From an uncultured Chloroflexia bacterium (lineage in GTDB: Bacteria; Chloroflexota; Limnocylindria; Limnocylindrales; CSP1-4), in contig CAVQUM010000021.1 of the NCBI GenBank assembly GCA_963716815.1, positions 3,299 to 67,298 on the forward strand: a DNA stretch of 64,000 bases. The letters are read 5' to 3'. The translations under genes and the position numbers were made by a program. This document shows, piece by piece, positions 1-38,042 of this stretch. Each line of letters opens with the position of its first letter. Position 1 is the stretch's first letter. The notes beneath the pieces were generated by a model. That model was not told the DNA's origin. It searched no databases and saw only the letters and a list, made by a program, of their open reading frames with translations.

Positions 1-108
1 CGAGCATCAGGCTGCCCTGACGAAGAACCGCCTGACGCGGAACTCGCCCGAGCGAGGGAGTCGGGTCCGTGTGCCGCCTCGTCGATCGGCCTGCATGGGG
101 GGCCGACC

Positions 109-672
109 ATGGTCGATTCCAGTGTCGTTCTCTGGGGCCAGGCGTTGGTGTACACGCTGTACGCGGCCGCCGTGCTCCTGATCATGGCGGTCTTCGCCAT
201 CATGATCACCAGACCCGGGACGGCGAAGGTGCCCAAGGTCCTCTTCACGGTCTGGGCCATCATCCTCGTCGTCACCGGCGTCTCGATCCACATCGTCTCC
301 TCCAGCACCATCCCGTGGGTCCACATGGACCTCGACCGCGACTCCTATACCGCGGACAAGACGTTCGAGATCTCCGTCGCCGACCATGAGTTCGAGCTGC
401 CGGCCGAGAAGCTGGCCATCGACTGCGGCGACCTGGTCCTCTTCGACGTCACGTCGGAGGACCTGACCTACGGCTTCGGGCTGTTCCGGCAGGACAACTC
501 GCTCGTCTTCCAGATGCAGGTCGTGCCCGGAAGTCGCAACGACGTGCTCTGGGAGTTCGAGAAGGACGGGGTCTACACCATCCGCTCGACCGAGTACTCA
601 GGGCCTGAGGGCCACCAGATGATCTTGCCCGACGCCGTCGAGGTGACCGGCTGCGCGGAAGACGCGGAATAG
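109..672 (+). CDS. Heme-copper oxidoreductase subunit II-like protein (2 TM helices + cupredoxin-like domain) lacking CuA cysteines
   Basis: 187-aa ORF with two N-terminal hydrophobic helices. It has STEYSGPEGHQM where CuA proteins have CxExCGxxHxxM, so both Cys positions are Ser. It has DLTYGF where CuA proteins have DV(I/L)H(S/G)F. It lies 17 nt upstream of the subunit I gene. Confidence 0.6.
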   Translation: MVDSSVVLWGQALVYTLYAAAVLLIMAVFAIMITRPGTAKVPKVLFTVWAIILVVTGVSIHIVSSSTIPWVHMDLDRDSYTADKTFEISVADHEFELPAEKLAIDCGDLVLFDVTSEDLTYGFGLFRQDNSLVFQMQVVPGSRNDVLWEFEKDGVYTIRSTEYSGPEGHQMILPDAVEVTGCAEDAE

Positions 673-689
673 GGCGGGGGTGACGTGAG

Positions 690-2321
690 ATGACCTTCAT
701 GAAGACCCTCGTCGGTGGCAACCAGGGCGCCTTCGACGCCTCCACCCTCACGCCCATGCAGAAGCTGACGCTGCGCTTCGTGGTCGTCGGCATCGGCTAC
801 TACGCCTTCGCTGCCATCGAAGGCATGATCATGCGGATCTACGCCATCGAGCCGATCTCGCTGATCCCGCCGAACCAGTACTTCGGCATCCTCACCGCGC
901 ACCCGCTGGTGGGCATCTTCGGCTCGACCTACCTGCTCTCGCTGGGCGCGTTCCTGTTCCTCGTGCCGTTCATGATGCAGAAGCCGCTGTACAGCTACAA
1001 GCTGGCGCTGTTCACCTTCTGGTCGATCGCCATCGGCACCTTCGTCTTCTGGTTCGATGGCTTCCTGACTCACTACGCGCCGCTGTACACGCTCTACTGG
1101 CCGCTGCCGGCCGACACGTCGCAGTTCGAGCCGTGGAGCGGCGTCATCTTCGTCGCCGGCATCGCGGTCATCATGCTGGGCACGCTGGCCTTCGTGTGGA
1201 ACACCTTCGCCACGATCCTGTACACGCCCAAGGGCGAGGATCACATCGAGAAGTGGCCGGTCTTCAAGTCGGCCATCGGACTGACCGGCTTCCGCAACAT
1301 CTTCCGCGGCCACAGCCAGGATGACGAGCCGGTACCGCTGGGCGTGGCGGCGGTGGCTCGAGGTGCGGTCGATGCCGCGCTCAACTCGTTCATCATCCTC
1401 GGCGCGGGCGTGCTGATCATCGTCTTCCTCTTCGCGGCCGCCATCGGCATCTCGCTCGATGACACGATCATCGACGCGCTGCTCTACAAGAACTTCTTCT
1501 GGTGGGGCCTCGACCTCATCGCCGACGGCCTGGTGCTCATCTGGGTCGCGGGCGCCTGGTACATCCTGGCCACGCTCATCACCGGCCGGCGGCTGTTCAT
1601 GGCCAACGTCGCTCGCGCGGCCCTGCTCGTGGAGCTGATCGTGTCGTGGACGGTGTGGTCGCACCACCTGCTCTCCGACCAGGGCCAGCCGGCGATCCTG
1701 AAGGTCGTCTCGGGCGAGATGGTGACGGCCTTCGAGCTGATCACCCAGGGCCTGGCCTTCTTCATCACGCTGGCCACGCTCTGGCTGGCCCGGCCGCTGA
1801 AGATGACCAACGAGCTCAAGTTCCTGCTCGGCGGCCTGACGGGCTTCGGGCTCGGCGTCGCTGCCGGCATCCTGCAGGCAGATATCGGTCTCAACCGCAT
1901 CCTGCACAACACCCAGTGGGTCATCGGCCCGCACGTCCACGTGGCTGTGCTCGTGGGCCTGACCATGACCCTCTACGCGGTCGTCTACAAGCTCTTCCCC
2001 ATCCTCACCAACGGGGCGGTGCTGTGGAGCGAGCGCCTGGTCAACGTCCACTTCTGGTTCCACTTGCTCGGCGGCATCGGCATGGGTGCCTTCATGGGCA
2101 TGGCCGGCCTGTCCGGCATGCTCCGGCGGACCATCTACTACGAGGACGAGTACCTCGTCTTCATGATCCTCGCGGGCATCTGCGGGGCGATGCTGATCGT
2201 CGCGCTGGCGGCGTTCCTCATCAACATCGTCATGACCGTCGGGCTCAAGGGTGCCATCGGCATCTTCCTGCCGGCCAAGGGCAGTCCCGACCAGCTGCTA
2301 CCGGAGGCCCCCGCGGAGTAG
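690..2321 (+). CDS. Heme-copper oxidoreductase subunit I-like protein with an altered (carboxylate) binuclear-site ligand set
   Basis: 543-aa polytopic ORF. Candidate heme ligands are H71 (LTAHPLVG) and H415/H417 (HNTQWVIGPHVHV, compare HNTAWVPGHFH in ba3). The HH pair is at 325-326 (WSHHLL). The CuB helix reads FFWWGLDLIADG instead of FWWxGHPxVY, giving D275 and D279. Confidence 0.8.
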   Translation: MTFMKTLVGGNQGAFDASTLTPMQKLTLRFVVVGIGYYAFAAIEGMIMRIYAIEPISLIPPNQYFGILTAHPLVGIFGSTYLLSLGAFLFLVPFMMQKPLYSYKLALFTFWSIAIGTFVFWFDGFLTHYAPLYTLYWPLPADTSQFEPWSGVIFVAGIAVIMLGTLAFVWNTFATILYTPKGEDHIEKWPVFKSAIGLTGFRNIFRGHSQDDEPVPLGVAAVARGAVDAALNSFIILGAGVLIIVFLFAAAIGISLDDTIIDALLYKNFFWWGLDLIADGLVLIWVAGAWYILATLITGRRLFMANVARAALLVELIVSWTVWSHHLLSDQGQPAILKVVSGEMVTAFELITQGLAFFITLATLWLARPLKMTNELKFLLGGLTGFGLGVAAGILQADIGLNRILHNTQWVIGPHVHVAVLVGLTMTLYAVVYKLFPILTNGAVLWSERLVNVHFWFHLLGGIGMGAFMGMAGLSGMLRRTIYYEDEYLVFMILAGICGAMLIVALAAFLINIVMTVGLKGAIGIFLPAKGSPDQLLPEAPAE

Positions 2322-2415: not shown

Positions 2416-3610
2416 TCAGATCACGCGGTCGCTGAAGTCGCCGCTCCGGGGGTCCTTGAGGATGAGCTTGGAGCGGCCGTCGGGCAGCAGCTCGCGCTTG
2501 ATCACCACCTGACCCTCGTAGATCTCGGGCTCCTTGCTGATGGGCGCGGTCTTCCCGCCGCGCCAGTCGAGCTCGACCGGCTCCCAGGCCCGGCTCGCGG
2601 CCGACTGGTAGCAGGCGTCCATGATGGCGTTGACGACGTAGCCGTCGTAGAGCGTCTCCATGGGTTCGCGGCCCTCGTCCATGGCATCGAACATGTCGCT
2701 GAACATGTCCGTGTAGCCCAGCTCGGAGACCTCGTCGCCGACGGGGAAGAGCCAGCCGGCGTCGGTCTCGGCCTTCTCCGCCACGTAACTCTTGTCGCCC
2801 TCGCCGGCGGTGAACATCTCGAAGCCCGTGCGCAGGAAGTTGTTGATCCAGACGGTGCCGCCTGTGCCCGCGACCTCGGTGCGCAGGTCCATCCCGCCAC
2901 GGAAGGTCCAGCTCACCTCGAACTGGCTGGTCGCACCCGACTCGTAGCGCACGAGCGCGATGGCGTTGTCCTCCGCGTCGATGGGATGCACCAGCGTGTC
3001 GGTCTGGCACATCACCTCCACGGGCCGGTTGCCCTTGCCCAGGAAGACGCGCCCGATCTCGATGCAGTGGCAGCCCAGGTCGATGATGGCGCCGCCACCA
3101 GTGAGGCGGTGGTCCCAGAACCAGGCCGAGTGTGGCCCCGGGTGCGCCTCACGGGCCCGGACCCAGGTGATATCGCCGAGCGCGCCGTCCTGTGCGGACT
3201 TCATGGCCTTGAGCGACTTGGGCGAGTACACGAGGTCCTCGAGATAGCCGTGGAAGACCCCGGCCTTCTCGACCGCGTCGAGCATGCGCTTGGCCTCGGC
3301 CGCGCTGCGCCCGAGCGGCTTGGTCACGAGCAGCGTTCTTGCCGGCCTCGGCCACGGCCACGACCGCTTCCTCGTGCAGGAAGTTGGGCAGGGCCACGAT
3401 GACCGTGTCGGTGTCGGGGTGGTCGATGGCGGCGGGCATGTCCGTCGTCGACTCGGGAATGCCGTGGCGCGCCTTGAAGGCCTGGCCACGCTCATCCGAC
3501 CGGGAGTAGACGACCTGCACGCGGTCGCGGCTGCGCTGTCCGTGCAGGGTCATGGTGTAGAAGTCGCCGATCAGCCCGGTGCCGAGCATGGAGACCTTGT
3601 GCTGCTTCAC
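2416..3610 (-). pseudogene. Gfo/Idh/MocA family NAD(P)-dependent oxidoreductase, one frameshift
   Basis: The N-terminal Rossmann part ([18 protein letters not shown]...AVAEAGKN) lies in ORF 3149..3610. The C-terminal part ([15 protein letters not shown]... to the end) lies in ORF 2416..3495. The frames join at about 3336 (aagaac-g-ctgctcgtg), consistent with one extra base. Confidence 0.8.
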
Positions 3611-6040: not shown

Positions 6041-9030
6041 ATGATCGGCTCCATGGCTCGCAGGATGGCCAGCCCGGTGCTGGTCGGACGGACAGAGGTG
6101 CTCGGTGGGCTGCACGCGTCCATCGAGGCGGCGCACGCGGGCACGCCGCGGCACACCGTCATCGGCGGCGAGGCCGGCGTGGGCAAGACCCGGCTCCTCG
6201 AGGAGCTGAGCCAGATGGCCCAGGCCGAGGGCCTGCGGGTGCTGATCGGGGGCTGCGTTTCGATGGGTGCCGAGGGCCTGCCGTTCGCGCCCTACGCCGA
6301 GATCGATCCGGACCCTGGTGACCCAGGACGGCGCACCCGAGGTCACTGCGCTCGCCGGCCGCGCCGCGGCCGACCTGTCCCGCCTCGTCCCGGCCCTGCG
6401 GACAGGTGATGCCCCGCCGGACCGGGACCTGGCGCAGACGCGCCTCTACGAAGCGCTCCATGACCTCATCCGCAACCTCGCGGGGCAGGGTCCGCTGCTG
6501 GTGGGGGTCGAGGATCTGCACTGGGCCGACGCCGGCACCCTGGCGGCGACCTCCTATCTGCTGCGTGCCATCCGCGACGAGCCGGTCGCCATCGTCGCCA
6601 CCTTCCGTAGCGACGACGTCACTCGCACGCACCCATTGCGTCGCTGGCTGGCGGAGGTCGGCCGCGATGCCGACGTCGAACGGGTCGAGCTGGAGCCGCT
6701 CGATGAGGCCGAGGTCGGCTCGCTGGTCGAGCACCTCATCGGGGAGCGGCCGAGGCCAGGCGAAGCCGAGTCCATCCACCGACGCTCGGACGGCAACCCC
6801 TTCTTCGTGGAGGAGCTCGTCTGTTGCCGGGTAGCGGGTCCCGCTCGCCTGCCGGCCTCCTTGCGCGACGTGCTCGCGGCTCGCGTCGACGCCTTGCCCG
6901 AGGGCGCACGCTCGCTCATCGCGACCGCTGCTGTCGGTGGTCGCGAGGTCGAGCACGACATCCTGGTGGCGGTCGTGGGCGGCGACGAGACGGCCATCTC
7001 GAGCGATCTCGCGGCGCTGGTCGAGGCCGGCTTGCTGACCCCGACCCGCGCCGCCGACGGCGACGATGCCTACTCCTTCCGGCATGCGCTGCTGCACGAG
7101 GCCGTCTACGACGCGATGCTGCCGACGGAGCGCCGACGCCTCCATCGATCATGGGGTGAGTACCTCAGCGCGCACCAGGTCCGCGACGCAGGCCCGGCAC
7201 ACCTCGTGCAGATCGCCCACCACTGGCGGGAGGGCCGTGACGAGCGGGCTCTCGCGGCATCGATCGCGGCCGGTGACGCGGCCATGGCCGCTTTCTCCTA
7301 CGACATCGCCGCGGACGAGTTCGAGTCCGCGCTGCTGCTGTGGGAGGACGACGCCGAGGTCGGTCCTCGACCACGTCGCCTTGCTCGAACGGTCCTGCCG
7401 CGCGGCCTACCTCAGCTCGGACTATCGCCGCGCGGTCGCCGCCTGCCGCGCGGCCATCGACGAGCTCGGCGAGGGTGATGCAGCGCGTCTGACCGAGCTG
7501 CTCACCCTGCTCGCCCGGGTGCTGTGGGTGTCGGGCGACTGGGGCGACGCCATCGACACCTACGAACGTGCCGTGGACGTGTCGCCGGCGGAGCCGGCCA
7601 TCGTACGACTCAAGGCGCTCGCGGGCCTGGCCCAGGTGTACATGCTCCACGAACGCAATCAGGAGGCGCGCCCCCTGTGCGAGGCCACCATCGAGGCGGC
7701 GAGGGCCATCGGTGCCCGTGACCTGGAGGGACACGCCCTCAACACCCTGGGTGTGGTGCTCTCCGAGCTGGGCGAGACCGAGGCTGCCCGGAAGTCGCTC
7801 GACGACGCCCTGGCCATCGCGCTCGAGCTGGGCATCCCCGACGACATCGGCCGCGCCTACGTCAACCGCTCCGAGGTCGAGAGCTGGAACGGCTATCCCG
7901 AGCTGGGGCTCGACATCTCGCGGGAGGGCATGCGCGTGACTTCGGAGTGGGGCGTCGGAGCTAGCTACGGTTCCTCCATCGGCGCTGGCGCGGCGTCCTT
8001 TGCCTTCGAGGCGGGCCGGTGGGCCGAGGGCTACCAGCTGCTGGCCGAAGGCCGACCGGCAGGCCGGTCCTGTATCAGGGCACCGACGTCTATCGCTCGA
8101 CGTACGTGCTGGAGCTGCTCGCGTGCGCGGGCGACCAGGGATTCTGGCCGCTGTGGGAGGACACGCGGCCGATGCTCCTGGCGCGGCCGGCCACGGACAA
8201 CTCCGGGCTGGCCTACATGGCCGGGATCCAGCATGCCGCCTTCGCCGGCGACGACGCCCAGGCCCTGGCCTGGGGCCACGAGGGCGTCGACCTGCTGAGC
8301 ACCTCGGAGGCGGGCATCCGCCTGGTGGAGCTGGCACGAGTCACGGCCTGGCCGGTAGCCGACATGGGCCGCCGTGCGCGGCTCGCCGGCGATGTCGCGG
8401 CGCTCCAGTCGGCCCGCGCGGAGATGACCTGGCTGGCTGAGCTCGTCACGACCTCGCGGCGGCAGTTCGAGCGTTACCCCAGCCGGTTGAAGGACATCCT
8501 GGCCCACTGCGGCGACCAGGTCGAGGCCGAACGCGCACGCATGGAGGGGGAGGGGGCCGTGGCCCCGTGGGCCACGCTGGCCGACCGCTGGGCGGACCTG
8601 GGGCGACCATATCGCGCGGCCTACTGCCGCTGGCGCTTGGCTACCGCTGGCGGAGGAGGCTGGTGACCGCGACCCCGCTGTGAACGCGCTGCGTGAGGCC
8701 CACGCGATCGCGGGCGAGCTCGGAGCCCGGCCGCTGCTGGGGCAACTGGAGACCGCGGCCCGCCGCATGCGCGTGCGCCTCGGCGCTGCCGCGAAGTCCG
8801 CGGGGGCCAAGCCCGACGATGCCTACGGCCTCACCCGCCGGGAGCGAGAAGTGCTGGCTGAGGTGGCGGCCGGGCGCACCAACCGCGAGATCGCCGAGGG
8901 GCTCTTCATCAGCGAGTCCACAGCCGGCGTCCACGTCAGCAACATCCTGGGCAAGCTCGGCGTCTCCACTCGCACCGAGGCTGCCCGTGTCGCCCTGGAC
9001 CAGGGCCTGGCCGGCGCCTCCGTCGAGTAG
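6041..9030 (+). pseudogene. Large ATP-binding LuxR-family regulator (AAA/STAND NTPase + TPR-like repeats + C-terminal LuxR HTH), four frameshifts
   Basis: Walker A GGEAGVGKTRLLEEL, then LVGVEDLHWAD, helical repeat region, and a C-terminal LTRREREVLAEVAAGRTNREIAEGLFISESTAGVHVSNILGKLGV. The reading passes through ORFs 6041, 6267, 7066, 8019 and 8680, joining at about 6305, 7362, 8066 and 8640. Confidence 0.8.
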
Positions 9031-9075
9031 CTCGGCGCCCCCGCCCGGGACGGGACGGAGGCGCCGTCGAGGACA

Positions 9076-9707: not shown

Positions 9708-10430
9708 TCAGGGGCCAGCCAACGGGTCGGCCTGTAGCAGCGACGGATCGGGCATCGGGGGTGGCTCACCTGGCCAGATGGCCCCCTCGAGTACCCGCTC
9801 CGCTTCAGCAGGGTGGTCTCGTGTGGAGTGGAAGTAGCTGTAGCCGGCGTAGGCGCCATCGCCGAGCAGCCAGCCGTATTCGATCTCGGTGCCGTCGGGA
9901 TAGCGCACACCGTTGACCGCGCCTTCCCAGGCGCCCCACTCGTTCTCCAGCCGCATGACGCCGCCCGAGCGGCCAAGGTCGGCCTCCGGCGCATCCTCGA
10001 TCGCGAACACCTGGTGTGCCTCGCCGCGGATGCGTGGGTCTTCGCTCTCGATGCGCAGGAAGCGCTCGGCGCCACCCTCTGTCTCGACGTGTCTGACCAC
10101 TTCGACGCTGCCCTCGATGACGCGGACCGCCGACGGGTCCATCGGGGGCGCGCTCCCCGCCCCGCCGAGTGGCCCGAAGGTCAGCGTCGACACCGCCAGC
10201 AGGACCACGCCCACGATCACGACGGTCGCCAGTGGCAGCGGGCGTGCGCTGTGCTCACGGTTCCACGACCGAGCGTCGAACAGCAGCCCCAGGCGAACCC
10301 GCAGCGGGTGATGTTGGCGGCGCTCGGCGGTGCGCTCCAGGGCGTCGTCGATGACCTGGTCCGGCGCGACGACGGGACCGTCAGCGAGCCAGTCGCCCAG
10401 GTGGCGTTCAAGGTCCTGATCACGGGTCAT
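9708..10430 (-). CDS. Anti-sigma factor (N-terminal cytoplasmic segment, one TM, extracytoplasmic domain of unknown family)
   Basis: Internal ATG at 10430 (MTRDQDLERHLGDWLADGP) with a GGGAG-type RBS upstream. TM segment LPLATVVIVGVVLLAVSTLTF. It lies directly downstream of the ECF sigma region and in the same ORF. Confidence 0.65.
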   Translation of the reverse strand: MTRDQDLERHLGDWLADGPVVAPDQVIDDALERTAERRQHHPLRVRLGLLFDARSWNREHSARPLPLATVVIVGVVLLAVSTLTFGPLGGAGSAPPMDPSAVRVIEGSVEVVRHVETEGGAERFLRIESEDPRIRGEAHQVFAIEDAPEADLGRSGGVMRLENEWGAWEGAVNGVRYPDGTEIEYGWLLGDGAYAGYSYFHSTRDHPAEAERVLEGAIWPGEPPPMPDPSLLQADPLAGP

Positions 10431-28013: not shown

Positions 28014-28325
28014 ATGGGCCGTCCCGTGCCCAAGCGCTGCCGCAAGTACTGCCCCGCGGCGGCGTCGATCGTGAGCCTGGACCAGCTCGGCCGAGGCCAG
28101 ACCGGCCGGATCCTGCGAGTCGGCGGTCGACCAGCGGCGCGGCGCAGACTCCTGGAGCTCGGCGTCGTACGTGGCGAGACCATCATGCTGCAGCGTGCCG
28201 CGCCGCTCGGGGACCCACTCGAGTTCATCGTCAAGGGCTATCACCTCTCCCTCCGCAAGCGTGAAGCCGCCACCATCATCGTGGAAGCGCTGGAGGCACC
28301 GGCCAGATCGGCCACCGCCGCATGA
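28014..28325 (+). CDS. feoA: Ferrous iron transport protein A
   Basis: FeoA-like SH3 domain LDQLGRGQTGRILRVGG...RRRLLELGVVRGETIMLQRAAPLGDPLEFIVKGYHLSLRKREAATIIV. Its stop overlaps the feoB ATG. The start is chosen at an internal ATG. Confidence 0.7.
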   Translation: MGRPVPKRCRKYCPAAASIVSLDQLGRGQTGRILRVGGRPAARRRLLELGVVRGETIMLQRAAPLGDPLEFIVKGYHLSLRKREAATIIVEALEAPARSATAA

Positions 28326-28852
28326 GCGGCACGCTCACGCTGGCCCTCGCGGGCAATCCCAACGCGGGCAAGACCAGCATCTTCAACGCCCTCACCGGCT
28401 CTCGCCACCACGTGGGCAACTGGCCCGGCAAGACCGTGGCCAAGATGGAGGGCACCTTCCGCCACGGCGATGTCGTCGGCCGGCTCGTGGACCTGCCCGG
28501 TACCTACAGCCTCTCGGCTCTCTCGCCGGAGGAGGTCATCGCTCGTGACTACCTGCTCACCGGTGAGGCCGACGTGGTCATCGACGTCGTCGACTCCACC
28601 AACCTCGAGCGCAACCTCTACCTGACCGCGCAGCTGGCCGAGCTGGGCATCCCGCTGGTGCTGGCACTCAACGTCAGCGACAGCGCCCGCGCCCAGGGCA
28701 TCAAGATCGACCGAGAGCGGCTCTCCGCGCTGTTCGGCCGCGCGCCCGTCGTCGAGACGGTCGGCCATCGCGAGCAGGGCCTCGGTCCGCTCATGGATGC
28801 GGCCATCGGCCTGGTCGATCCCACTCGAGCGCGTCTGCGCCTCGTGGCCTAG
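28322..28852 (+). CDS. feoB: Ferrous iron transporter FeoB, N-terminal G-domain segment ending at an in-frame TAG
   Basis: G1 GNPNAGKTSIFNALTG, G3 DLPGTYS, G4 NVSD. The ORF stops at TAG 28850-28852, in the same frame as the membrane part. Confidence 0.85.
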   Translation: MSGTLTLALAGNPNAGKTSIFNALTGSRHHVGNWPGKTVAKMEGTFRHGDVVGRLVDLPGTYSLSALSPEEVIARDYLLTGEADVVIDVVDSTNLERNLYLTAQLAELGIPLVLALNVSDSARAQGIKIDRERLSALFGRAPVVETVGHREQGLGPLMDAAIGLVDPTRARLRLVA

Positions 28853-28861
28853 CCGAGATCC

Positions 28862-30565
28862 ATGACCACGTTCGCGGGCACGTCCGACCACCCCGGCTTC
28901 CGCATCGACTACGGGACCGACGTGGAGGCGGAGCTCTCCGCGCTCGTCGAGCGCATCGTCGCGGTGCCCGAGCTGGACGAGGCCTTCCCGTCGCGCTGGC
29001 TGGCGATCAAGCTGCTCGAAGGTGAGGCCGACCTCGTCGCGCGGGTGGCCGCTGCCGTCGGCGGCGCGGCCATCGTGGACCGGGCGGAGGCGGGCCGCGA
29101 GCGCATCGAGCAGATGCACGGCGACACGGCCGACCTCGCCATCGCCGACGCGCGCTACGGCTATGTGCACGGGGTCGTGCGCGAGGTCGTCGACACCTCG
29201 GGCATGTCCCGCTACACCGTCACCGACCGGCTCGACCGCGTCCTCACCAACCGCTGGCTTGGCCTGCCCATCTTCTTCGCGGTCATGTTCGTCGTCTTCA
29301 AGCTCGTGGTCGAGGTCTCGGCCTACTTCCTCGACTGGGTCGACGCGGTCTTCGCCGGTCCGGTCACGCGCTGGGTGACGGGGCTGCTGGAGATGGTCAA
29401 CGCTCCCGACTGGTTCGTCTCGCTTGCGGTCGACGGCGTCATCGCAGGCGTCGGTGCGGTGCTCGTCTTCGTCCCCGGGCTCATCGTGCTCTACATGTTC
29501 CTGACGCTGCTCGAGGACAGTGGCTACATGGCCCGCGTGGCCTTCGTCATGGATCGCGTCATGAGCTTCACCGGGCTCCACGGCAAGTCCTTCATCCCCA
29601 TGGTGCTCGGCTTCGGCTGCGCGGTGCCCGCGATCTACGCCACGCGCACGCTCGAGAACCGCACGCAGCGGATCATGACCTCGTTGCTGGTGCCGCTGAT
29701 GTCGTGCTCGGCGCGGCTGCCGGTGTACGTCGTCTTTGGGCTGGCCTTCTTCGGCGCGGCCGCGGCCACGGTCATCACCGGGCTCTACGTCGTGGGCATC
29801 CTCATCGCGGGCCTCGTCGCCATCGTCCTCTCGCGCACGATCTTGAAGGAGCGCGACGACTCGGTCTTTGCACTCGAACTGCCGCCGTATCGCATGCCCA
29901 CGATGAAGGCGCTGACGACCCACACCTGGCAGAAGACCAAGGAGTTCGTGGTCAAGGCCGGGACGGTCATCCTCGTCGTCTCGGTCGCGCTGTGGTTCCT
30001 GATGAACCTGCCCTGGGGCGTGGAGGAGCAGCGCGACAGCTACTTCGGCCAGGTCAGCGCTGTTGCCGCGCCGGTCTTCGAGCCGGCTGGGTTCGGTACC
30101 TGGGAGGCCTCGGGAGCGCTGGTCACCGGCTTCATCGCCAAGGAGGTCGTCGTGGCCACGATGGCCCAGACGTACCTCGGTGAGGACGAGCCAGCCGCGG
30201 CGGGGCCGGTGCCATCGATGGGCGAGGACATCCGCGAGATCGGCACGTCGCTGGTCGCGGCGGCCGACGGTGCCGTGCGTTCCACGCTGAGCATCGTGCC
30301 CGGGGTGGACCTCGTGGCTGACGAAGAGGCGGAGCCACAGGACACCGCGCTGAGCAACGCCCTCGCCTCCAACTTCACCCCGCTGGCGGGCCTGGCCTTC
30401 GTCATGTTCGTGCTCATCTACACGCCCTGCGTGGCCACACTGAGCGCCATCAAGAGCGAGCTCGGCTGGCGCTGGGCGGCGTTCTCCGGCTTGTATCAGT
30501 TCGCGCTGGCCTGGTTCCTCGCGGTGGTCGTCTTCCAGGTCGGCACCTTCCTGGGCTACGCCTGA
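28862..30565 (+). CDS. feoB: Ferrous iron transporter FeoB, helical and membrane segment
   Basis: LEDSGYMARVAFVMDRVM...GLHGKSFIPMVLGFGCAVPAI and LIYTPCVATL match FeoB gate motifs. It is in the same frame as 28322..28852, 9 nt after the TAG. Confidence 0.85.
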   Translation: MTTFAGTSDHPGFRIDYGTDVEAELSALVERIVAVPELDEAFPSRWLAIKLLEGEADLVARVAAAVGGAAIVDRAEAGRERIEQMHGDTADLAIADARYGYVHGVVREVVDTSGMSRYTVTDRLDRVLTNRWLGLPIFFAVMFVVFKLVVEVSAYFLDWVDAVFAGPVTRWVTGLLEMVNAPDWFVSLAVDGVIAGVGAVLVFVPGLIVLYMFLTLLEDSGYMARVAFVMDRVMSFTGLHGKSFIPMVLGFGCAVPAIYATRTLENRTQRIMTSLLVPLMSCSARLPVYVVFGLAFFGAAAATVITGLYVVGILIAGLVAIVLSRTILKERDDSVFALELPPYRMPTMKALTTHTWQKTKEFVVKAGTVILVVSVALWFLMNLPWGVEEQRDSYFGQVSAVAAPVFEPAGFGTWEASGALVTGFIAKEVVVATMAQTYLGEDEPAAAGPVPSMGEDIREIGTSLVAAADGAVRSTLSIVPGVDLVADEEAEPQDTALSNALASNFTPLAGLAFVMFVLIYTPCVATLSAIKSELGWRWAAFSGLYQFALAWFLAVVVFQVGTFLGYA

Positions 30566-31719: not shown

Positions 31720-32104
31720 CGCGCGATCATCCCCGCATCCTCTTCACCGAGACTGCGCATCGACGTACCCCGACCTTCGAGCAGGCGTTGCACTAGTTGC
31801 AAGAGCGCGCCCCAACCGAGACCCGGTTCGCACCTGCCCTGCACCAAGGTGCACGCCACCGTCATCCACTTGCAGCTGCCGCAAGGGTCGTGCGCGGGGA
31901 CGGTCCGATCGGTCGCACTCTTTCAGGTCGTGCAAGGTTCGCCCGGCCGACCGGCGCCATGGCCGACCAACGGCCCCCGATCCGGTGGCCGAACGGCCCA
32001 AGCCTACGTGTTTCAGACAGTTAGACCATGTGCGTCTAGCGTGGGCCTCACGAGGGAGAGGGCTGCGCGCGTGAGAGGGAACACGTAGCGGGGGGTCACG
32101 TCGC

Positions 32105-33517
32105 TTGGACGCAGAACTGCTGGCGAGATTGCAGTTCACGCTCACAGCCAGCTACCACTTCATCTTCCCGCCTCTGAGCATGGGGCTTGGTCTGATGCTG
32201 CTGTTCGTCAGCGGCGCGTACCTGCGGACCAGGGATCCCAAGTGGCGGCAGCTGCAGTTCTTCTGGGTGAAGGTCTACGGCATCGTCTTCGCCATGGGTG
32301 TCGCCACCGGCATCGTCATGGAGTTCGAGTTCGGCATGAACTGGGCCGAGTACTCGCGCTTCGTGGGCAACGTCTTCGGATCGCTGCTGGCAGCCGAGGG
32401 CGTGTTCGCCTTCTTCCTCGAGGGTGGCTTCCTGGGCCTGATGCTCTTCGGCGGCAACCGCCTGGGACCGCGGATGTGGTTCCTGGCCAGCTTCATGGTC
32501 GTCTTCGGAGCGCACTTCAGCGCCATCTGGATCACCGCGGCCAACTCCTGGATGCAGACACCCGCCGGCTACGAGCTGCAGGCGCTGCCGGAGCCGGCGC
32601 GTGCGGTCATGACCGACTTCTGGGCCACCGTCTTCACGCCCTCGTTCGTCCCACGGCTTCTGCATGTCTTCTTCGCCAGCTGGACCGCCGGCGCCGCCCT
32701 GGTGGCCAGCGTCGGGCGCCTGGTACATCCTGCGCAAGAAGGAACACGCCGAGCTGGGCAAGGCCTGCCTCAGCATCTCGCTTCCGTTCTTCATCCTCTT
32801 CTCGGTGGCTGAACGCCGGCATCTTCGGTCCGGAGTCGGCCCGTAGCGTGGCCGAGAACCAGCCCGAGAAGCTGGCAGCCATGGAGGGCATCTGGGAGAC
32901 CGAAGAGAACGCCCCCGCCTACGTCGTGGGCTGGGTCGACCAAGGTTCAGGCGACACCATCGGCATCGCCATCCCCGGTCTGTTGAGCTTCCTCAGCGGG
33001 GCCGACACCGTCACCGGCATCAACGACTTCGAGGTGCCGCCGACGCTCTCCAACCTGACCTTCCAGTCGTACCACCTGATGGTCGGCCTGGGCATGGCCA
33101 TCGTGCCCTTCGCCCTGCTGGCGGCGGGATTGTGGTTCTGGAAGCGCAAGCTGCTCGAGCAGCGCTGGGCGCTGTGGATCGTGGTGTCCTCGGTGTTCGT
33201 GGCGCTGTTCGTCATCACCATGGGCTGGTGGGTGGCCGAGTTCGGCCGGCAGCCGTGGATCGTCTACGGGCTGATGTTCACCGCCGATGCCGACATCGCC
33301 AGTGGTGGAAGCGTGGGAGATCGTAGCCTCGCTCGGTGGCTTCGTGCTCATCTACATCCTGCTGCTGGTGCTCTTCCTGTACCTGCTCAACCGCAAGATC
33401 CAACGTGGCCCGGCGGCACTCGAGGAGGTCGAGTCCAAGCCGGTCGGTGACCTGCCCGATTCCCTGCGCGGCATCTTCGCTGCGCGCGGCAGCGGCGAAG
33501 AGAGGATGACCCGATGA
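32105..33517 (+). pseudogene. cydA: Cytochrome bd ubiquinol oxidase subunit I, three frameshifts
   Basis: TTG start. LARLQFTLTASYHFIFPPLSMGL and the Q-loop region ENQPEKLAAMEGIWET are typical. The reading passes through ORFs 32105, 32664, 32242 and 33287, joining at about 32716, 32808 and 33291. Confidence 0.85.
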
Positions 33518-34533
33518 TCCTCAACGAAGTCTGGTTCATCCTCTTCATCGTCATCCTCGGGGGCTATCTCATCCTCGACGGCTTCGACATGGGCGTGGGC
33601 ATCCTGCACATGGTCGCGGCCAAGACCGATGACGAGCGGCGCACGCTGCTCAACAGCATCGGTCCCGTGTGGGACGGCAACGAGGTCTGGCTCATCCTCG
33701 GCGGTGGCGTGCTCTTCGCCATCTTCCCCTTCGCCTATGCCTCGCTCTTCAGCGGCCTCTACCTCGCGTTCATGCTGGTGCTGGTCGTGCTCATCTTTCG
33801 GACGGTGACCTTCGAGTTCCGTTCGCAGCGCACGAGCTCGACCTGGCGCACGGTCTGGGACTGGTCATTCAGCCTGTCCTCGCTCTTGCTGGCACTGCTC
33901 CTGGGCGTGGCCTTCGGTGGCGTCATCAGCGGCCTGCCCCTGGGTGCCAACCAGGAGATCGAGACCAACCTCCTCGAGCTGCTCACGCCGTTCAACCTGC
34001 TGGTGGGCGTGGCCACGGTGGCCATGTTCGCCATGCACGGTGGCATCTACCTGTCGATGAAGACCGACGGCGAGCTGCTGGCCCGCCTCAAGCGCTACAT
34101 GCCCTACCTGATGGGCGCCTTCGTGGTCCTCAACACGCTCGTGGTGGTGGCCGCGGTGGCGCTCGGCCTGCCCTTCACCGAGCGCTACCTCAAGGAGCTC
34201 TGGCCGGTCGTCTTCCCGGCCGCGGCGCTCGTGGCCATGGCGGTGGTCTGGTACTACGTGCAGCAGGGTCGGCTCTTCCCTGCCTTCATGGCCTCGTCGC
34301 TGATGATCCTGTTCCTGATCATGGCCGGTGGCATCGGCATGCACCCGAACCTCATCATCAGCAGCATCGACCAGGCCTACAACCTGACCATCTTCAACGC
34401 GGCCTCGGAAGAGCCCACGTTGATCGTGGCCCTGATCATCGCCCTCATCGGGATGCCGTTCGTCCTGCTATACACCGCAGGTGTCTACTACATCTTCCGG
34501 GGCAAGGTCAGCGTCGACAGCACGAGCTACTAG
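33514..34533 (+). CDS. cydB: Cytochrome bd ubiquinol oxidase subunit II
   Basis: ATGA overlap with cydA. Reads FILFIVILGGYLILDGFDMGVGIL...GPVWDGNEVWLI. Intact. Confidence 0.9.
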   Translation: MILNEVWFILFIVILGGYLILDGFDMGVGILHMVAAKTDDERRTLLNSIGPVWDGNEVWLILGGGVLFAIFPFAYASLFSGLYLAFMLVLVVLIFRTVTFEFRSQRTSSTWRTVWDWSFSLSSLLLALLLGVAFGGVISGLPLGANQEIETNLLELLTPFNLLVGVATVAMFAMHGGIYLSMKTDGELLARLKRYMPYLMGAFVVLNTLVVVAAVALGLPFTERYLKELWPVVFPAAALVAMAVVWYYVQQGRLFPAFMASSLMILFLIMAGGIGMHPNLIISSIDQAYNLTIFNAASEEPTLIVALIIALIGMPFVLLYTAGVYYIFRGKVSVDSTSY

Positions 34534-34572
34534 CCGCGATGGTCGCAGCCCCGTGAGCGGGCTCGGCCGCGC

Positions 34573-36381
34573 ATGATCTCGACTCGAGCAGCCGGTGACT
34601 CGCCAGAGCGCCGGCTGCTTGGTCATGACCGGTGGGCCCGTCGCTGGATGGCCGTGGCCGTGGCGGCAGGCGTGGGCGCCTCGATGGCACTGGTGGCGCA
34701 GCTCATCGCGGTCGCCCTGGCGGTGGCTGGTGTCTTTCTCGAGGACCGGACCCTGGGCGACGTCCTGCCGCTGCTGGCCATCGGCCTGGGGCTGCTCCTC
34801 CTGCGCACCGCCCTGGGCATCACCGCTGAGTTGGCGGCGCGTCGCTCCGCCGAGCAGCTCGTGGGCCGGCTGCGCAGCGATCTTACCGGGCAGGTGCTGC
34901 GCCTGGGCCCGACCTGGACGGGCCGCGAACGCGCCGGTGAGATCAGCGGCGTGCTCATCGGCGGGCTCGAGGACATCGAGAGATACCTGACCCAGTTCGT
35001 GCCCACGCGCCGCCTGGCCACGATCGTGCCGGCCCTGGTCCTGCTGCTGGTCCTGCTGCTCGACCCGCCCTCGGTGCTGGTGCTGCTCTTCACCGGCCCG
35101 CTGCTGCTGCTGCTGCTGGCGGTCATCGGCAGCCGCACGCGCGCCGTCAGCCAGCGCCGCTTCATGGAGATGCGCGCTCTCTCCGCCTTCTTCCTCGACA
35201 TCCTGCGCGGCATCGCCACGCTCAAGATGTTCGGCCGCAGCCGGGAGCAGGTGGACAACCTCGCTCGTGTCAGCCGTGGCTACGGCGACGCCACCATGGA
35301 CGTGCTGCGCACCGCGTTCCAGACCAGCCTCGTGCTCGAGTGGGGTGCCACCATCGCCATCGCCCTGGTGGCGGTGGAGATCGGCCTGCGCCTGCTGGAG
35401 GGCACCATCCCCTTCGAGCGTGCCCTCGCCGTCCTGCTCATCACGCCCGAGTTCTTCCTGCCCCTGCGCGCGCTGGCGATCCGCTTCCATGTGGGCACCG
35501 CGGGCGCAGCCGTGATCACGCGCACCTTCGAGGTCCTCGACGAGCCGGCGCCGACGTCTGCCGGTGATCGGGCCGATGGAGAAGGAGTGCGGGCGACCCC
35601 GGCCCCGGCGTCAGCCATCTTGGTCAAGCCGCCGCGCATCTCATTCGAAGGGGTCGTCCTGCGCTATCCCGGACGGGAGGTGGCCGCGCTCGACGGCGTG
35701 AGCCTGGAGCTACACCCCGCTGAGTCGGTGGCGCTGGTGGGCGCCAGCGGCGCCGGCAAGTCGACGATGGCCAGTACCCTCCTGCGCTTCATCGAGCCCG
35801 ACCGCGGCACAGTCAGCGTGGATGGCCGGCCGCTGGGCGAGCTGGCCCTCTCCGACTGGCGCGCGTCCGTGGCATGGGTGCCGCAGCGGCCGCACCTCTT
35901 CGACGGCTCGGTCGCCGACAACATCCGACTGGCGCGGCCGGGCGCCCCGGACGAGGAGGTCGCGGCGGCCGCTCGTGCCGCCAACGCGCTCGAGTTCATC
36001 GAGCGGCTGCCGGCCGGCCTCGAGACACCCGTCGGCGACGCCGGGTCGCGGCTGAGTGGCGGACAGCGCCAGCGCATCGCCATCGCCCGAGCCTTCCTGC
36101 GCGACGCGCCGGTCCTCATCCTCGACGAGGCCACCAGCCACCAGGACGAGGCCAGTGAGTCGGCCATCGCCGACGCGCTGGAGCGGCTGATGGCCGAGCG
36201 CACGACGCTGATCATCGCTCACCGCCTGCGTCTCGCGCAGCGCGCCCGGCGAGTCGTGGTGCTCGAGCACGGCCGGGTCGTAGAGACCGGCACAGCGGGC
36301 GAGTTGCTCGCGGCCGAGGGGCCCTATCGCCGCCTGTTCGACGACCAGGGCCAGCTCGTCGCTGGGGAGTCCCGAGCGTGA
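34573..36381 (+). CDS. cydD: Thiol reductant ABC exporter subunit CydD
   Basis: Six-TM domain plus ABC domain (GASGAGKST, LSGGQRQRIAIARA, ILDEAT), directly downstream of cydAB. Intact. Confidence 0.8.
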   Translation: MISTRAAGDSPERRLLGHDRWARRWMAVAVAAGVGASMALVAQLIAVALAVAGVFLEDRTLGDVLPLLAIGLGLLLLRTALGITAELAARRSAEQLVGRLRSDLTGQVLRLGPTWTGRERAGEISGVLIGGLEDIERYLTQFVPTRRLATIVPALVLLLVLLLDPPSVLVLLFTGPLLLLLLAVIGSRTRAVSQRRFMEMRALSAFFLDILRGIATLKMFGRSREQVDNLARVSRGYGDATMDVLRTAFQTSLVLEWGATIAIALVAVEIGLRLLEGTIPFERALAVLLITPEFFLPLRALAIRFHVGTAGAAVITRTFEVLDEPAPTSAGDRADGEGVRATPAPASAILVKPPRISFEGVVLRYPGREVAALDGVSLELHPAESVALVGASGAGKSTMASTLLRFIEPDRGTVSVDGRPLGELALSDWRASVAWVPQRPHLFDGSVADNIRLARPGAPDEEVAAAARAANALEFIERLPAGLETPVGDAGSRLSGGQRQRIAIARAFLRDAPVLILDEATSHQDEASESAIADALERLMAERTTLIIAHRLRLAQRARRVVVLEHGRVVETGTAGELLAAEGPYRRLFDDQGQLVAGESRA

Positions 36382-38042
36382 GCGAGGTTCGACGCCTGCT
36401 GCGCTTGGCCCTGCCGCACTGGACGTGGCTGGCTGCCGGAGCGCTCCTCGGCGTCATCGCGGTCGGCTCCAACGTGGCGCTCATGGGCCTTTCCGCCTAC
36501 CTCATCTCCAAGGCGGCCATCGCCACGGGCGTGGCCGAGCTGGCCCTGGCGGTGACCGGCGTGCGCGTGCTGGCCATCTCGCGTGCCGGCTTCCGCTACC
36601 TCGAGCGCTACACCACGCACCGGGCCATGTTCCACGTGCTCTCCACGATGCGCGTCTGGTTCTACCGAGCCGTTGAGCCGCTGGCGCCCGCGCGCCTCGT
36701 GCACCAGCGCAGCGGCGACCTGCTGACCCGTTCGGTCCACGACGTCGACGCACTGGAGGACTTCTACATCAAGGTGCTGGTGCCGCCGGTCGTGGCCGCG
36801 GTGGTGGTCGCGAGCGTGAGCCTCATCTACGGCCTCTTCGACCTCGCCATCGGCCTCGCGACGGCGTTCTTCCTGGTGCTCACCGGCGTGGTCCTGCCGC
36901 TGGTCTCACGCTGGCTCTCAAGAGCGCCCGCAGCTGCCGCGGCCACACTGCGCGGCGATGTGGGGGCCATGCTCGTCGACGAGGTCGGGGGCGTGGCCGA
37001 TCTGGTCGCGCTCGACGCCGCCGCGGCCCACCGTCGCCGGCTGCTGTCACGCGCGGCGGAGCTCGACGCCGCGCGTGGTCGGCTGGGCCTCATCGAGGGC
37101 GTGTCCAACGCGCTCGCGGGGCTGTTCGCCTCACTCGCGGGGTTGGTCATCCTGGTCCTGGCGATGCCGCTGGTGACCACGGGGGAGTTGGAGGGCGTGT
37201 TCCTCGCAGCCCTGCCGCTGGCCGCCATCGCGGCCTTCGAGGCAGTCCAGCCGTTGTCGCGCTCACTGCAGCTGTACGACACGACCAAGGTCTCCGCGCG
37301 ACGACTGTTCGAGCTCATCGACGAGGAGCCGCCGGTGATCGATCCCCGGCCCGCCGCCGCGCCACCCTCCGAGCACGACCTGGTCGTGTCGGGGCTCTCG
37401 TTCCGGTTCGCCCAGGAGGAACCCTGGGTGCTGCACGACTTCGACCTGCAGGTCGGGGCAGGCGAGCGCGTGGCGCTGGTGGGGCCGTCCGGCTGCGGCA
37501 AGTCCACGCTGGTCGCACTGCTGCTGCGATTCTGGGACTACGACACCGGCCAGGTCCGGATCGGTGGGCGGGAGCTGCGCGATCTGACGCAGGAGGACGC
37601 ACGCTCGCTACTCTCGGTCGTGCCACAGGACGTGCATCTGTTCAACGCCACGATCGAGGACAACCTGCTGGTGGCCGACGCGCACGCCACGGGCGAGGAC
37701 CTCGACCGCGCCTGTGCCGTGGCCCAGCTGGATGCGTTCATCGCTTCGCTACCCGATGGCTATGACACGGTCGTGGGCGAGGACGGCGCCCTGCTCTCAG
37801 GCGGCGAACGGCGCCGATTGGCGATCGCGCGGGCGGTGCTCAAGGACGCTCCGGTCGTGATCCTCGACGAGGCCACCGCCGACCTCGACACCACCACCGA
37901 GGCGGCTTTGTGGTCGGCGTTGGACCCGTGGCTACGCGGTCGGACGGCCTTGGTCATCTCGCACCGCACCACCGTCAGCGCCCACGTCGATCGCGTGGTC
38001 GAACTGGTGACGGCGCCGCCTCTGACCAGCCGGCAGAGGTGA
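36378..38042 (+). CDS. cydC: Thiol reductant ABC exporter subunit CydC
   Basis: Overlaps the cydD stop. TM domain plus ABC domain (GPSGCGKST, LSGGERRRLAIARA, ILDEAT). Intact. Confidence 0.8.
   Translation: MSEVRRLLRLALPHWTWLAAGALLGVIAVGSNVALMGLSAYLISKAAIATGVAELALAVTGVRVLAISRAGFRYLERYTTHRAMFHVLSTMRVWFYRAVEPLAPARLVHQRSGDLLTRSVHDVDALEDFYIKVLVPPVVAAVVVASVSLIYGLFDLAIGLATAFFLVLTGVVLPLVSRWLSRAPAAAAATLRGDVGAMLVDEVGGVADLVALDAAAAHRRRLLSRAAELDAARGRLGLIEGVSNALAGLFASLAGLVILVLAMPLVTTGELEGVFLAALPLAAIAAFEAVQPLSRSLQLYDTTKVSARRLFELIDEEPPVIDPRPAAAPPSEHDLVVSGLSFRFAQEEPWVLHDFDLQVGAGERVALVGPSGCGKSTLVALLLRFWDYDTGQVRIGGRELRDLTQEDARSLLSVVPQDVHLFNATIEDNLLVADAHATGEDLDRACAVAQLDAFIASLPDGYDTVVGEDGALLSGGERRRLAIARAVLKDAPVVILDEATADLDTTTEAALWSALDPWLRGRTALVISHRTTVSAHVDRVVELVTAPPLTSRQR

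Follow-up and report, generated by a model that had tools for sequence, protein, structure and literature searches.

We analyzed a stretch of 64,000 nucleotides (nt) from an uncultured Chloroflexia bacterium (GenBank assembly GCA_963716815.1, contig CAVQUM010000021.1, forward-strand positions 3,299 to 67,298), here called the window, near the start of which lie two genes whose products resemble the gNOR family of heme-copper oxidoreductases (HCOs). The two open reading frames (ORFs) are both on the plus strand and 17 nt apart: the first (109 to 672) encodes a subunit II of 187 amino acids, and the second (690 to 2321) encodes a subunit I of 543 amino acids. A G-rich, Shine-Dalgarno-like stretch stands ahead of the ATG of each, and both genes are full length, unlike some genes in their neighborhood that are split across reading frames. 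A convergent Gfo/Idh/MocA gene bounds the two-gene unit downstream, and the same arrangement, with subunit II directly 5′ of subunit I, is found in every one of the 78 related loci with room for it.

Subunit I is an HCO catalytic subunit with 12 transmembrane (TM) helices. It matches Pfam COX1 (5.9e-50), and its AlphaFold model (pLDDT 84, pTM 0.88) resembles subunit I of the aa3, bo3, and ba3 oxidases with a Foldseek TM-score of ∼0.75; because it scores far below the NCBIfam equivalog cutoffs for CtaD, CcoN, and SoxB, we place it outside the curated oxidase families. The original prediction, made from the sequence of the window without database searches, held that the three heme-ligand histidines and the histidine pair of helix VII are retained, and all of them are present where it had placed them: H71 in helix II, an axial ligand of the low-spin heme (900 to 902); H325/H326 in helix VII, the retained pair of the non-heme metal site (1662 to 1667); and, in a segment that opens with an H406-N-T motif (1905 to 1940), H415, the proximal ligand of the high-spin heme, and H417, the second ligand of the low-spin heme. 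Helix VI is where the protein departs from the oxidases. Here, the stretch FFWWGLDLIADG, which begins at residue 269, includes D275-L-I-A-D279 (1512 to 1526), with D275 (1512 to 1514) in place of the first histidine of the CuB or FeB site and D279 (1524 to 1526) in place of the cross-linked tyrosine, or of the glutamate of cNOR.

This register, at first proposed from a hand alignment, was recovered by two methods independent of it, neither of which places a histidine and a tyrosine at the canonical positions. In a HMMER alignment with plant COX1 (7jro), fwwgLDliaD pairs with FWFFGHPEVY, so that D275 falls on the histidine and D279 on the tyrosine, and the remaining landmarks are also matched (H71 on the heme histidine of helix II, H325/H326 on the HH pair, H406-N on H-D, H415/H417 on HFH, and R479/R480 on the propionate arginines). 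A MAFFT alignment with ten distant full-length HCOs, seven of which carry a GHP(V/I)VY-type H-x3-Y motif and two an H-x3-N motif, likewise matches D275 to the histidine and D279 to the tyrosine of GHP(V/I)VY. Moreover, H71, D275, D279, H325, H326, H415, and H417 are identical in all 45 homologues that we aligned, which come from three subclades with mutual identities of 39 to 47%, and the D275/D279 pattern is not due to chance. No tyrosine has migrated to the vicinity of the HH pair in the manner of cbb3 oxidases, as helix VII reads VSWTVWSHH there, and the glutamate of the D-channel is absent, its position being taken by I277.

Other conserved residues of subunit I may bear on electron and proton supply. 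In TM helix I, which spans residues 22 to 53 in the model, the outer half carries the charged pair E44 and R49 (819 to 836), both invariant in the 45 homologues; we infer that they are candidate quinol-site residues from a depth in the membrane like that of R71/D75 of Escherichia coli bo3, a likeness of position and not of residue-level alignment. The arginine pair R479/R480 (2124 to 2129), assigned to the heme propionates by the HMMER alignment, is also seen in the alignment of the 45 homologues. The K-channel of A- and B-family oxidases lies in helix VIII. The corresponding helix here (residues 335 to 366 in the model) bears a polar stripe of S341, T346, E349, T352, and Q353 (1710 to 1748), a possible proton path from the cytoplasm, in which the first four residues are invariant in the 45-homologue alignment and Q353 solely within the window's clade. 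The gNOR preprint describes conserved residues that fail to map onto the B-type K-channel.

Subunit II (109 to 672) has two N-terminal TM helices and a periplasmic cupredoxin domain that lacks a CuA site. Its similarity to COX2/CoxB is subthreshold only, and its AlphaFold model (pLDDT 83) consists of the two TM helices and a beta-sandwich, for which the top fold matches in the PDB are the CuA domains of subunit II of ba3, caa3, and aa3 and of N2O reductase. The position of the first CuA histidine is occupied by Y121 (469 to 471) in the motif DLTYGFG, the ba3 counterpart of which reads DVIHGF. The CuA loop is degenerate, S160-T-E-Y-S164-G-P-E-G-H169-Q-M171 (586 to 621), with serines at both cysteine positions. 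DLTYGFG and RSTEYSGP are invariant in all 78 subunit II relatives, Y121 across the subclades as well, which bears out the earlier view that the two cysteines and the first histidine of CuA have been replaced and that the usual electron entry site is absent. H169 in GHQM, by contrast, stands one residue out of place and is not conserved, V, A, or I being the usual residue at this position in the window's clade, leaving the invariant M171 as the only conserved member of the CuA ligand set.

The sister clades make the ancestry of this loop plain. In subclades B and C it reads STEYSGPRHPxM, where serine has taken the place of each cysteine and the canonical C-x3-C-x3-H-x2-M spacing is intact, and since this spacing is kept, subunit II clearly descends from a CuA protein. 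Subunit II of the sister clades has 140 to 145 amino acids and is preceded by a separate gene for a hydrophobic peptide of 34 to 35 amino acids (7458 to 7562 in locus L088, 7453 to 7560 in L090, and 9462 to 9566 in L092), which we take to resemble subunit IIa of cytochrome ba3. In alignment, this peptide corresponds to the first TM helix of subunit II in the window, with the shared pattern YT(L/I)(Y/F)...F...K/R, and the window's clade and the archaeal locus L084 have it as a fused part of subunit II.

The original prediction referred to a predicted family named gNOR, with a His-to-Asp replacement and no biochemical characterization, and the literature bears this out. The family is reportedly also attributed to Sievert et al. 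in 2008. According to Murali et al. 2024 (PMC11214002), whose survey covered GTDB and IMG, gNOR derives from the B-family side of the HCO tree, is found in Bacteria and Archaea that are mostly uncultured, is enriched in sulfidic habitats, and is the sole HCO family in which an active-site histidine has been replaced, by aspartate; its subunit II, like that of E. coli bo3, is a cupredoxin without CuA residues, and a quinol donor is considered possible, with candidate residues for quinol binding being conserved. Table A4 of PMC8756737, modified from Hemp and Gennis 2008, gives D at the tyrosine position of gNOR and lists Sulfurimonas, Sulfurovum, and Persephonella as carriers, and DAMO_1118-1119 of "Candidatus Methylomirabilis oxyfera" has been called gNOR as well. 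In the literature that we searched, which extends to 2026, we found no gNOR that had been purified, structurally solved, or biochemically studied.

The window pair shows these published features in that (i) subunit I has the HCO fold and the ligands of both the low-spin and the high-spin heme (the COX1 match, the Foldseek score, and the invariance in 45 of 45 homologues given above); (ii) one of the three active-site histidines is an aspartate, D275, in the same 45; (iii) the cross-link tyrosine is also an aspartate, D279, with VSWTVWSHH showing no migrated tyrosine; and (iv) subunit II is a cupredoxin by fold, with Tyr121, Ser160, and Ser164 in place of CuA ligands. Nearness to the B family may be indicated by the ba3-IIa-like peptide of the sister clades, the missing D-channel glutamate, and nearest outgroups that read GHPVVY, with PDB profile scores being alike for A- and B-family chains. 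The three-histidine CuB site and His-Tyr pair that characterize A- and B-family O2 reductases are replaced by the D275/D279 arrangement in every family member examined. No tested feature contradicts gNOR membership, and because the 2024 survey names gNOR as the only family with a replaced active-site histidine, the window genes very probably belong to it, an assignment that is set by published features and an argument of exclusion and not by reference sequences. The pair is thus most likely a further member of a described family and not a new kind of enzyme.

The family is large and widely spread. A scan of one genome per GTDB species found at least 496 carriers, and the details given here come from the best 80 of them, all metagenome-assembled genomes (MAGs). 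These 80 include Chloroflexota (Limnocylindrales and Anaerolineae), Bacteroidota (very many Bacteroidales), Ignavibacteria/Chlorobiota, Actinomycetota, Planctomycetota, Gemmatimonadota, and Marinimicrobia; the closest relatives among the matches listed are Chloroflexota MAGs, at 86 to 93% identity, and tblastn identities to Planctomycetota and Gemmatimonadota MAGs amount to 64 to 71%. To judge from accession prefixes, several MAGs that carry the family were probably public before the 2024 survey. In our sampled alignment, subunit I of the window's clade keeps at least 68% identity between Chloroflexota, Bacteroidota, Actinomycetota, Ignavibacteria, and unclassified MAGs, and such tight conservation in a 12-TM protein suggests either recent horizontal spread or extreme constraint. 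A tblastn search against plasmids gave no match. The subunit II search returned 2,662 distinct proteins (nonredundant at 90%), none with a precomputed Pfam domain. Conversely, a library of 1.84 billion proteins in 50% clusters held only two high-scoring full-length representatives of subunit I, P0090 (70% identity) and P0122 (50%), below which came ordinary HCOs at no more than 31% identity. A search seeded with P0122 uncovered two further subclades, one that includes Thermoprotei and Methanomethylicia archaea and another with Anaerolineae, Dehalococcoidia, and other bacteria. The H-x3-N relatives P0207 and P0230, which have an sNOR- or bNOR-like look, share 24 to 27% identity with the window protein. 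Separately, P0214 (462 amino acids, from a Logan assembly, 27% identity) reads LRFYLQG for GHPxVY and WQHLLSD for HH; lacking two of the three CuB histidines as well as the tyrosine, it could represent a further variant with an unusual active site.

The results above establish the fold, an invariant pattern of ligands, the missing CuA site, the arrangement of the operon, and how the family is distributed, and from them we propose a function. With moderate confidence, we read the pair as a copper-free gNOR-type HCO with a non-heme metal site that reduces nitric oxide (NO) with electrons from quinol and is encoded by a self-contained two-gene operon. In this model, subunit I would bind the low-spin heme through H71 and H417 and the high-spin heme through H415, and D275, D279, H325, and H326 would form a 2-His/2-carboxylate site beside the high-spin heme, in the place of CuB. 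That site most likely holds non-heme iron, the metal expected in the literature, like the 3-His/1-Glu FeB site of cNOR, and the analogy with H-x3-E and HH of cNOR makes Fe(II) bound by the four residues the most likely form. The most likely chemistry would be 2 NO + 2 e- + 2 H+ -> N2O + H2O. Subunit II would act as a membrane-anchored cupredoxin, derived from a CuA protein and unable to bind CuA, which makes membrane (mena)quinol, docked close to helices I and II of subunit I, the most likely source of electrons. The window also has a cytochrome bd subunit II gene and CydDC-like genes, which indicate that the organism has quinol-oxidizing respiration. They lie in a region at ∼32100 to 38042 (plus strand), with CydB (Cyt_bd_oxida_II, 2.3e-97) at 33514 to 34533 and two CydDC-like ABC transporters at 34573 to 38042; the ORF upstream of CydB (32105 to 32812) may be part of cydA. 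As the gNOR operon stands alone in a Chloroflexota-like genome, NO detoxification or an isolated NO-reduction step fits it better than full denitrification. An enzyme stripped of both copper sites would be well suited to places where copper is bound up by sulfide, an idea of ours that takes up the published note on sulfidic habitats.

The genes around the family in other genomes give a broader view of its possible role. In 44 of the 72 loci with room, the gene immediately upstream, in the same orientation, encodes an Fe-S-type regulator of the Rrf2 family (motif C-x(5-8)-C-x(4-6)-C); the remaining loci have an unrelated gene there, and the regulator is absent from the window's own Chloroflexota clade. 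Across six distinct sister-clade contexts (L087, L090, L092, L093, L094, and L084), the recurrent neighbors are a Creatinase_N/Peptidase_M24 protein (five contexts), a hemerythrin (four), a cation-diffusion-facilitator (CDF) exporter with Cation_efflux/ZT_dimer domains (four), and a Crp/Fnr regulator (three), with narHJI (6.5 kb upstream in L087) and NosL (in L093) found once each. A protein of ∼96 amino acids comes after subunit I, or is encoded close to it, in L087, L092, and L093. These recurrent neighbors may form a maturation, metal-delivery, or stress module. In 12 Bacteroidota loci, genes for YeeE/YedE transporters of sulfur compounds (TsuA-like, Pfam Sulf_transp) stand directly downstream of subunit I, as at 9923 to 11158 in L010, 9693 to 10202 in L011, and 6913 to 8008 in L021. 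Taken together, the context of the family leans toward NO, N-oxide, and anaerobic-stress biology, and the window copy is a bare two-gene unit.

Part of this context can also be read in another way, namely, that the site is real and serves another metal or substrate: heme and a 2-His/2-Asp site with Fe, Mn, or Zn would act on N2O, peroxide, nitrite, or sulfur or oxygen species in the defense or respiration of anaerobes. We regard this as unlikely. The CDF, Creatinase_N/M24, and hemerythrin neighbors speak for it, none of them being a classical nor accessory gene, as do the sulfur transporters of the 12 Bacteroidota loci, the largely anaerobic hosts (Bacteroidales, Anaerolineae, Ignavibacteria, and Methanomethylicia), the enrichment of gNOR in sulfidic habitats (PMC11214002), and the fact that no biochemical study of a gNOR turned up in the literature searched; against it, every characterized HCO without the tyrosine is an NO reductase (PMC11214002), D-x3-D mirrors the H-x3-E of cNOR, and the nar, NosL, Crp/Fnr, and Rrf2 neighbors indicate N-oxide biology. 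Spelled out in full, and with the same low expectation, it would be a copper-free heme/2-His-2-Asp enzyme with a metal or substrate other than that of cNOR, matured by a dedicated module, unnoticed until now, of the CDF exporter, the Creatinase_N/M24-like protein, hemerythrin, and the ∼96-residue protein; the window's clade would have spread horizontally among anaerobes, and in most lineages outside the window's Chloroflexota group the gene for an Fe-S Rrf2 sensor stands next to it.

The electron donor of an NO reductase could also differ from the one that we favor. A soluble or tethered periplasmic carrier might dock on the pseudo-CuA face of subunit II and feed the low-spin heme directly, a view that draws on the invariance of RSTEYSGP and DLTYGFG without copper across subclades at ∼40% identity, which suggests a retained interaction surface, and on the fact that we obtained no residue-level match to a known quinol site. 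Yet no gene for a cytochrome c, a cupredoxin, or another carrier is linked to the family in ∼90 loci, and many of the hosts are probably anaerobes that use menaquinone and have few c-type cytochromes. The invariant helix I residues E44/R49, like the charged helix I pair of bo3, and the conserved candidate quinol-binding residues of gNOR (PMC11214002) likewise argue for quinol, and we consider a nonquinol donor distinctly improbable. That the pair is a terminal O2 reductase or a noncatalytic relic of one is highly improbable, even though databases label subunit I as cytochrome c oxidase subunit I or as a cbb3-type oxidase and A-, B-, and C-family oxidases and NO reductases cross-react with each other's substrates at low rates (PMC11214002), since both partners of the His-Tyr cofactor are replaced, which excludes canonical four-electron O2 reduction and led us to reject O2-reductase function, the cbb3-like tyrosine near the HH pair is absent, both copper sites are lost, and a relic would not be expected to be conserved anywhere near so strongly (identity across phyla of at least 68% in the clade and ligands unchanged in 45 of 45 homologues).

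Several observations weigh against our proposal of quinol-driven NO reduction. The metal, substrate, and electron donor of the family are all predictions. The RSTEYSGP loop, invariant though copper-free, may have a role that a simple quinol-donor model leaves unexplained, perhaps in the docking of some partner. A 2019 preprint described gNOR with a His-to-Glu change at a heme ligand, which is absent here, all three heme histidines being invariant. The Rrf2 regulator of the relatives scores below the NsrR equivalog cutoff and resembles IscR, RirA, and SUF regulators equally well. None of the recurrent neighbors of the family is found in the window. Finally, no nir, nor, or nos gene, accessory nor genes included, turned up among the 23 window ORFs scanned with Pfam (about half of the window's ORFs), so that denitrification genes nearby, for which the original prediction had proposed to look, do not strengthen the case; the scanned ORFs include cytochrome bd subunit II, CydDC-like transporters, FeoB, regulators, and sugar-metabolism genes.

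It had further been suggested that the operon might continue upstream of position 1 and that additional subunits might be found there, and comparison with relatives supports neither. The 5′ leader (1 to 108, plus strand) aligns with a ∼180-bp gap before subunit II in L001, a syntenic contig that is 90% identical and in which the gap follows two unrelated hypothetical genes without Pfam match, and also with L002, and the 72 loci with room upstream show an Rrf2 regulator or an unrelated gene instead; no further subunit is suggested by the loci examined. Given the alignment to the intergenic gap of L001, we also rejected a reading of the 108 nt as coding sequence of another subunit. The leader probably holds a promoter or operator. 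Its stretch GCCTGCCCTGA..AAGGGCCGCCTGAC..CCCGAGCGAGGGAGTCGGG is conserved among the closest Chloroflexota relatives (window 1 to 108; L001 5285 to 5462; L002 ∼180 to 373), and it contains an imperfect inverted repeat with arms at 4 to 12 and 30 to 38, a possible operator or RNA element. No sigma-70-like promoter consensus was found in positions 1 to 108, and an Rfam scan of the whole window, leader included, gave no match.

Downstream of the operon, three genes are split across frames compared to their intact L001 orthologues, at 2416 to 3610 (minus strand), 6041 to 8124 (plus), and 8172 to 9033 (plus). They encode the Gfo/Idh/MocA oxidoreductase, whose Rossmann N terminus lies in ORF 3149 to 3610 and whose C-terminal domains lie in ORF 2416 to 3495, an AAA_16/TPR regulator (three frames), and a GerE/LuxR regulator (two frames), and the splits suggest indel errors of a long-read assembly, or pseudogenes. 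FeoB is also present as two plus-strand ORFs 10 nt apart, the first (28322 to 28852) with the FeoB_N GTPase and the second (28862 to 30565) with the cytosolic helical, Gate, and C-terminal membrane parts, which is either a natural split or a frameshift or stop artifact.

The window itself adds little that is new, and its genomic context is uninformative. Its genes are of moderate interest because the gNOR family remains a prediction on which environmental N2O studies already rely: surveys count gNOR-type enzymes as N2O sources on sequence alone. If the prediction holds, hundreds of Bacteroidota, Chloroflexota, Actinomycetota, Ignavibacteria, and archaeal species can form N2O, or detoxify NO, by a route independent of copper in sulfidic and anoxic habitats, and the enzyme would offer a natural instance of heme with a 2-His/2-carboxylate site next to it. 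The comparison across loci can guide the choice of an expression target and the design of experiments on regulation, in that it brings out the frequent Rrf2 gene upstream, the CDF/hemerythrin/M24 neighbors recurring in sister clades, the split versus fused IIa, and the tight conservation within the clade.

Set against known systems, the window pair shares with published gNOR the aspartates at the active-site histidine and tyrosine positions, the CuA-less cupredoxin, a probable position among the A/B branches, with traits of the B family, and an occurrence in Bacteria and Archaea, mostly uncultured ones; it differs in that subunit IIa is fused to subunit II and in that N-oxide genes are missing from its neighborhood. 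With cNOR (NorBC) and qNOR it has in common a predicted binuclear site of heme and non-heme metal without tyrosine and a carboxylate four residues after the first helix VI ligand (H-x3-E versus D-x3-D); qNOR likewise has an extra domain that contains no redox cofactor, and its donor is quinol. These enzymes, however, retain the full set of three histidines, fall in the C-family branch, and are paired with cytochrome c, or carry a fused NorC-like domain, in place of a cupredoxin. We rejected membership in either, given the aspartate at the first histidine, the cupredoxin partner, and the fact that no cNOR or qNOR chain was among the PDB profile matches at an E value of ≤1e-3. The eNOR, sNOR, bNOR, and nNOR families resemble the window pair in being derived from O2 reductases, in having lost the tyrosine (for Gln, Asn, or Glu), and in having a cupredoxin partner, but all of them keep the three histidines, and eNOR, sNOR, and bNOR keep CuA.

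Among the oxidases, the bo3 and aa3-600 quinol oxidases combine a cupredoxin subunit II without CuA, like that of the window pair, with quinol entry at helices I and II of subunit I, and the window protein has the invariant charged pair E44/R49 in helix I. On the other hand, bo3 retains both CuB and the tyrosine, reduces O2 as a proton-pumping enzyme of the A family, and has quinol-site residues (R71, D75, H98, and Q101) that do not demonstrably align with the window protein. There is also a likeness to the B-family ba3 oxidase of Thermus thermophilus, with which the window pair shares the fold, the lack of a D-channel glutamate, and a small cupredoxin subunit II whose best fold matches are ba3 CuA domains, and with which the sister clades share a separate IIa-like peptide of ∼34 amino acids. 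Where ba3 has the three-histidine CuB site, the His-Tyr cofactor, and CuA and reduces O2, the window pair has aspartates for the first histidine and the tyrosine and serines for the cysteines of CuA.

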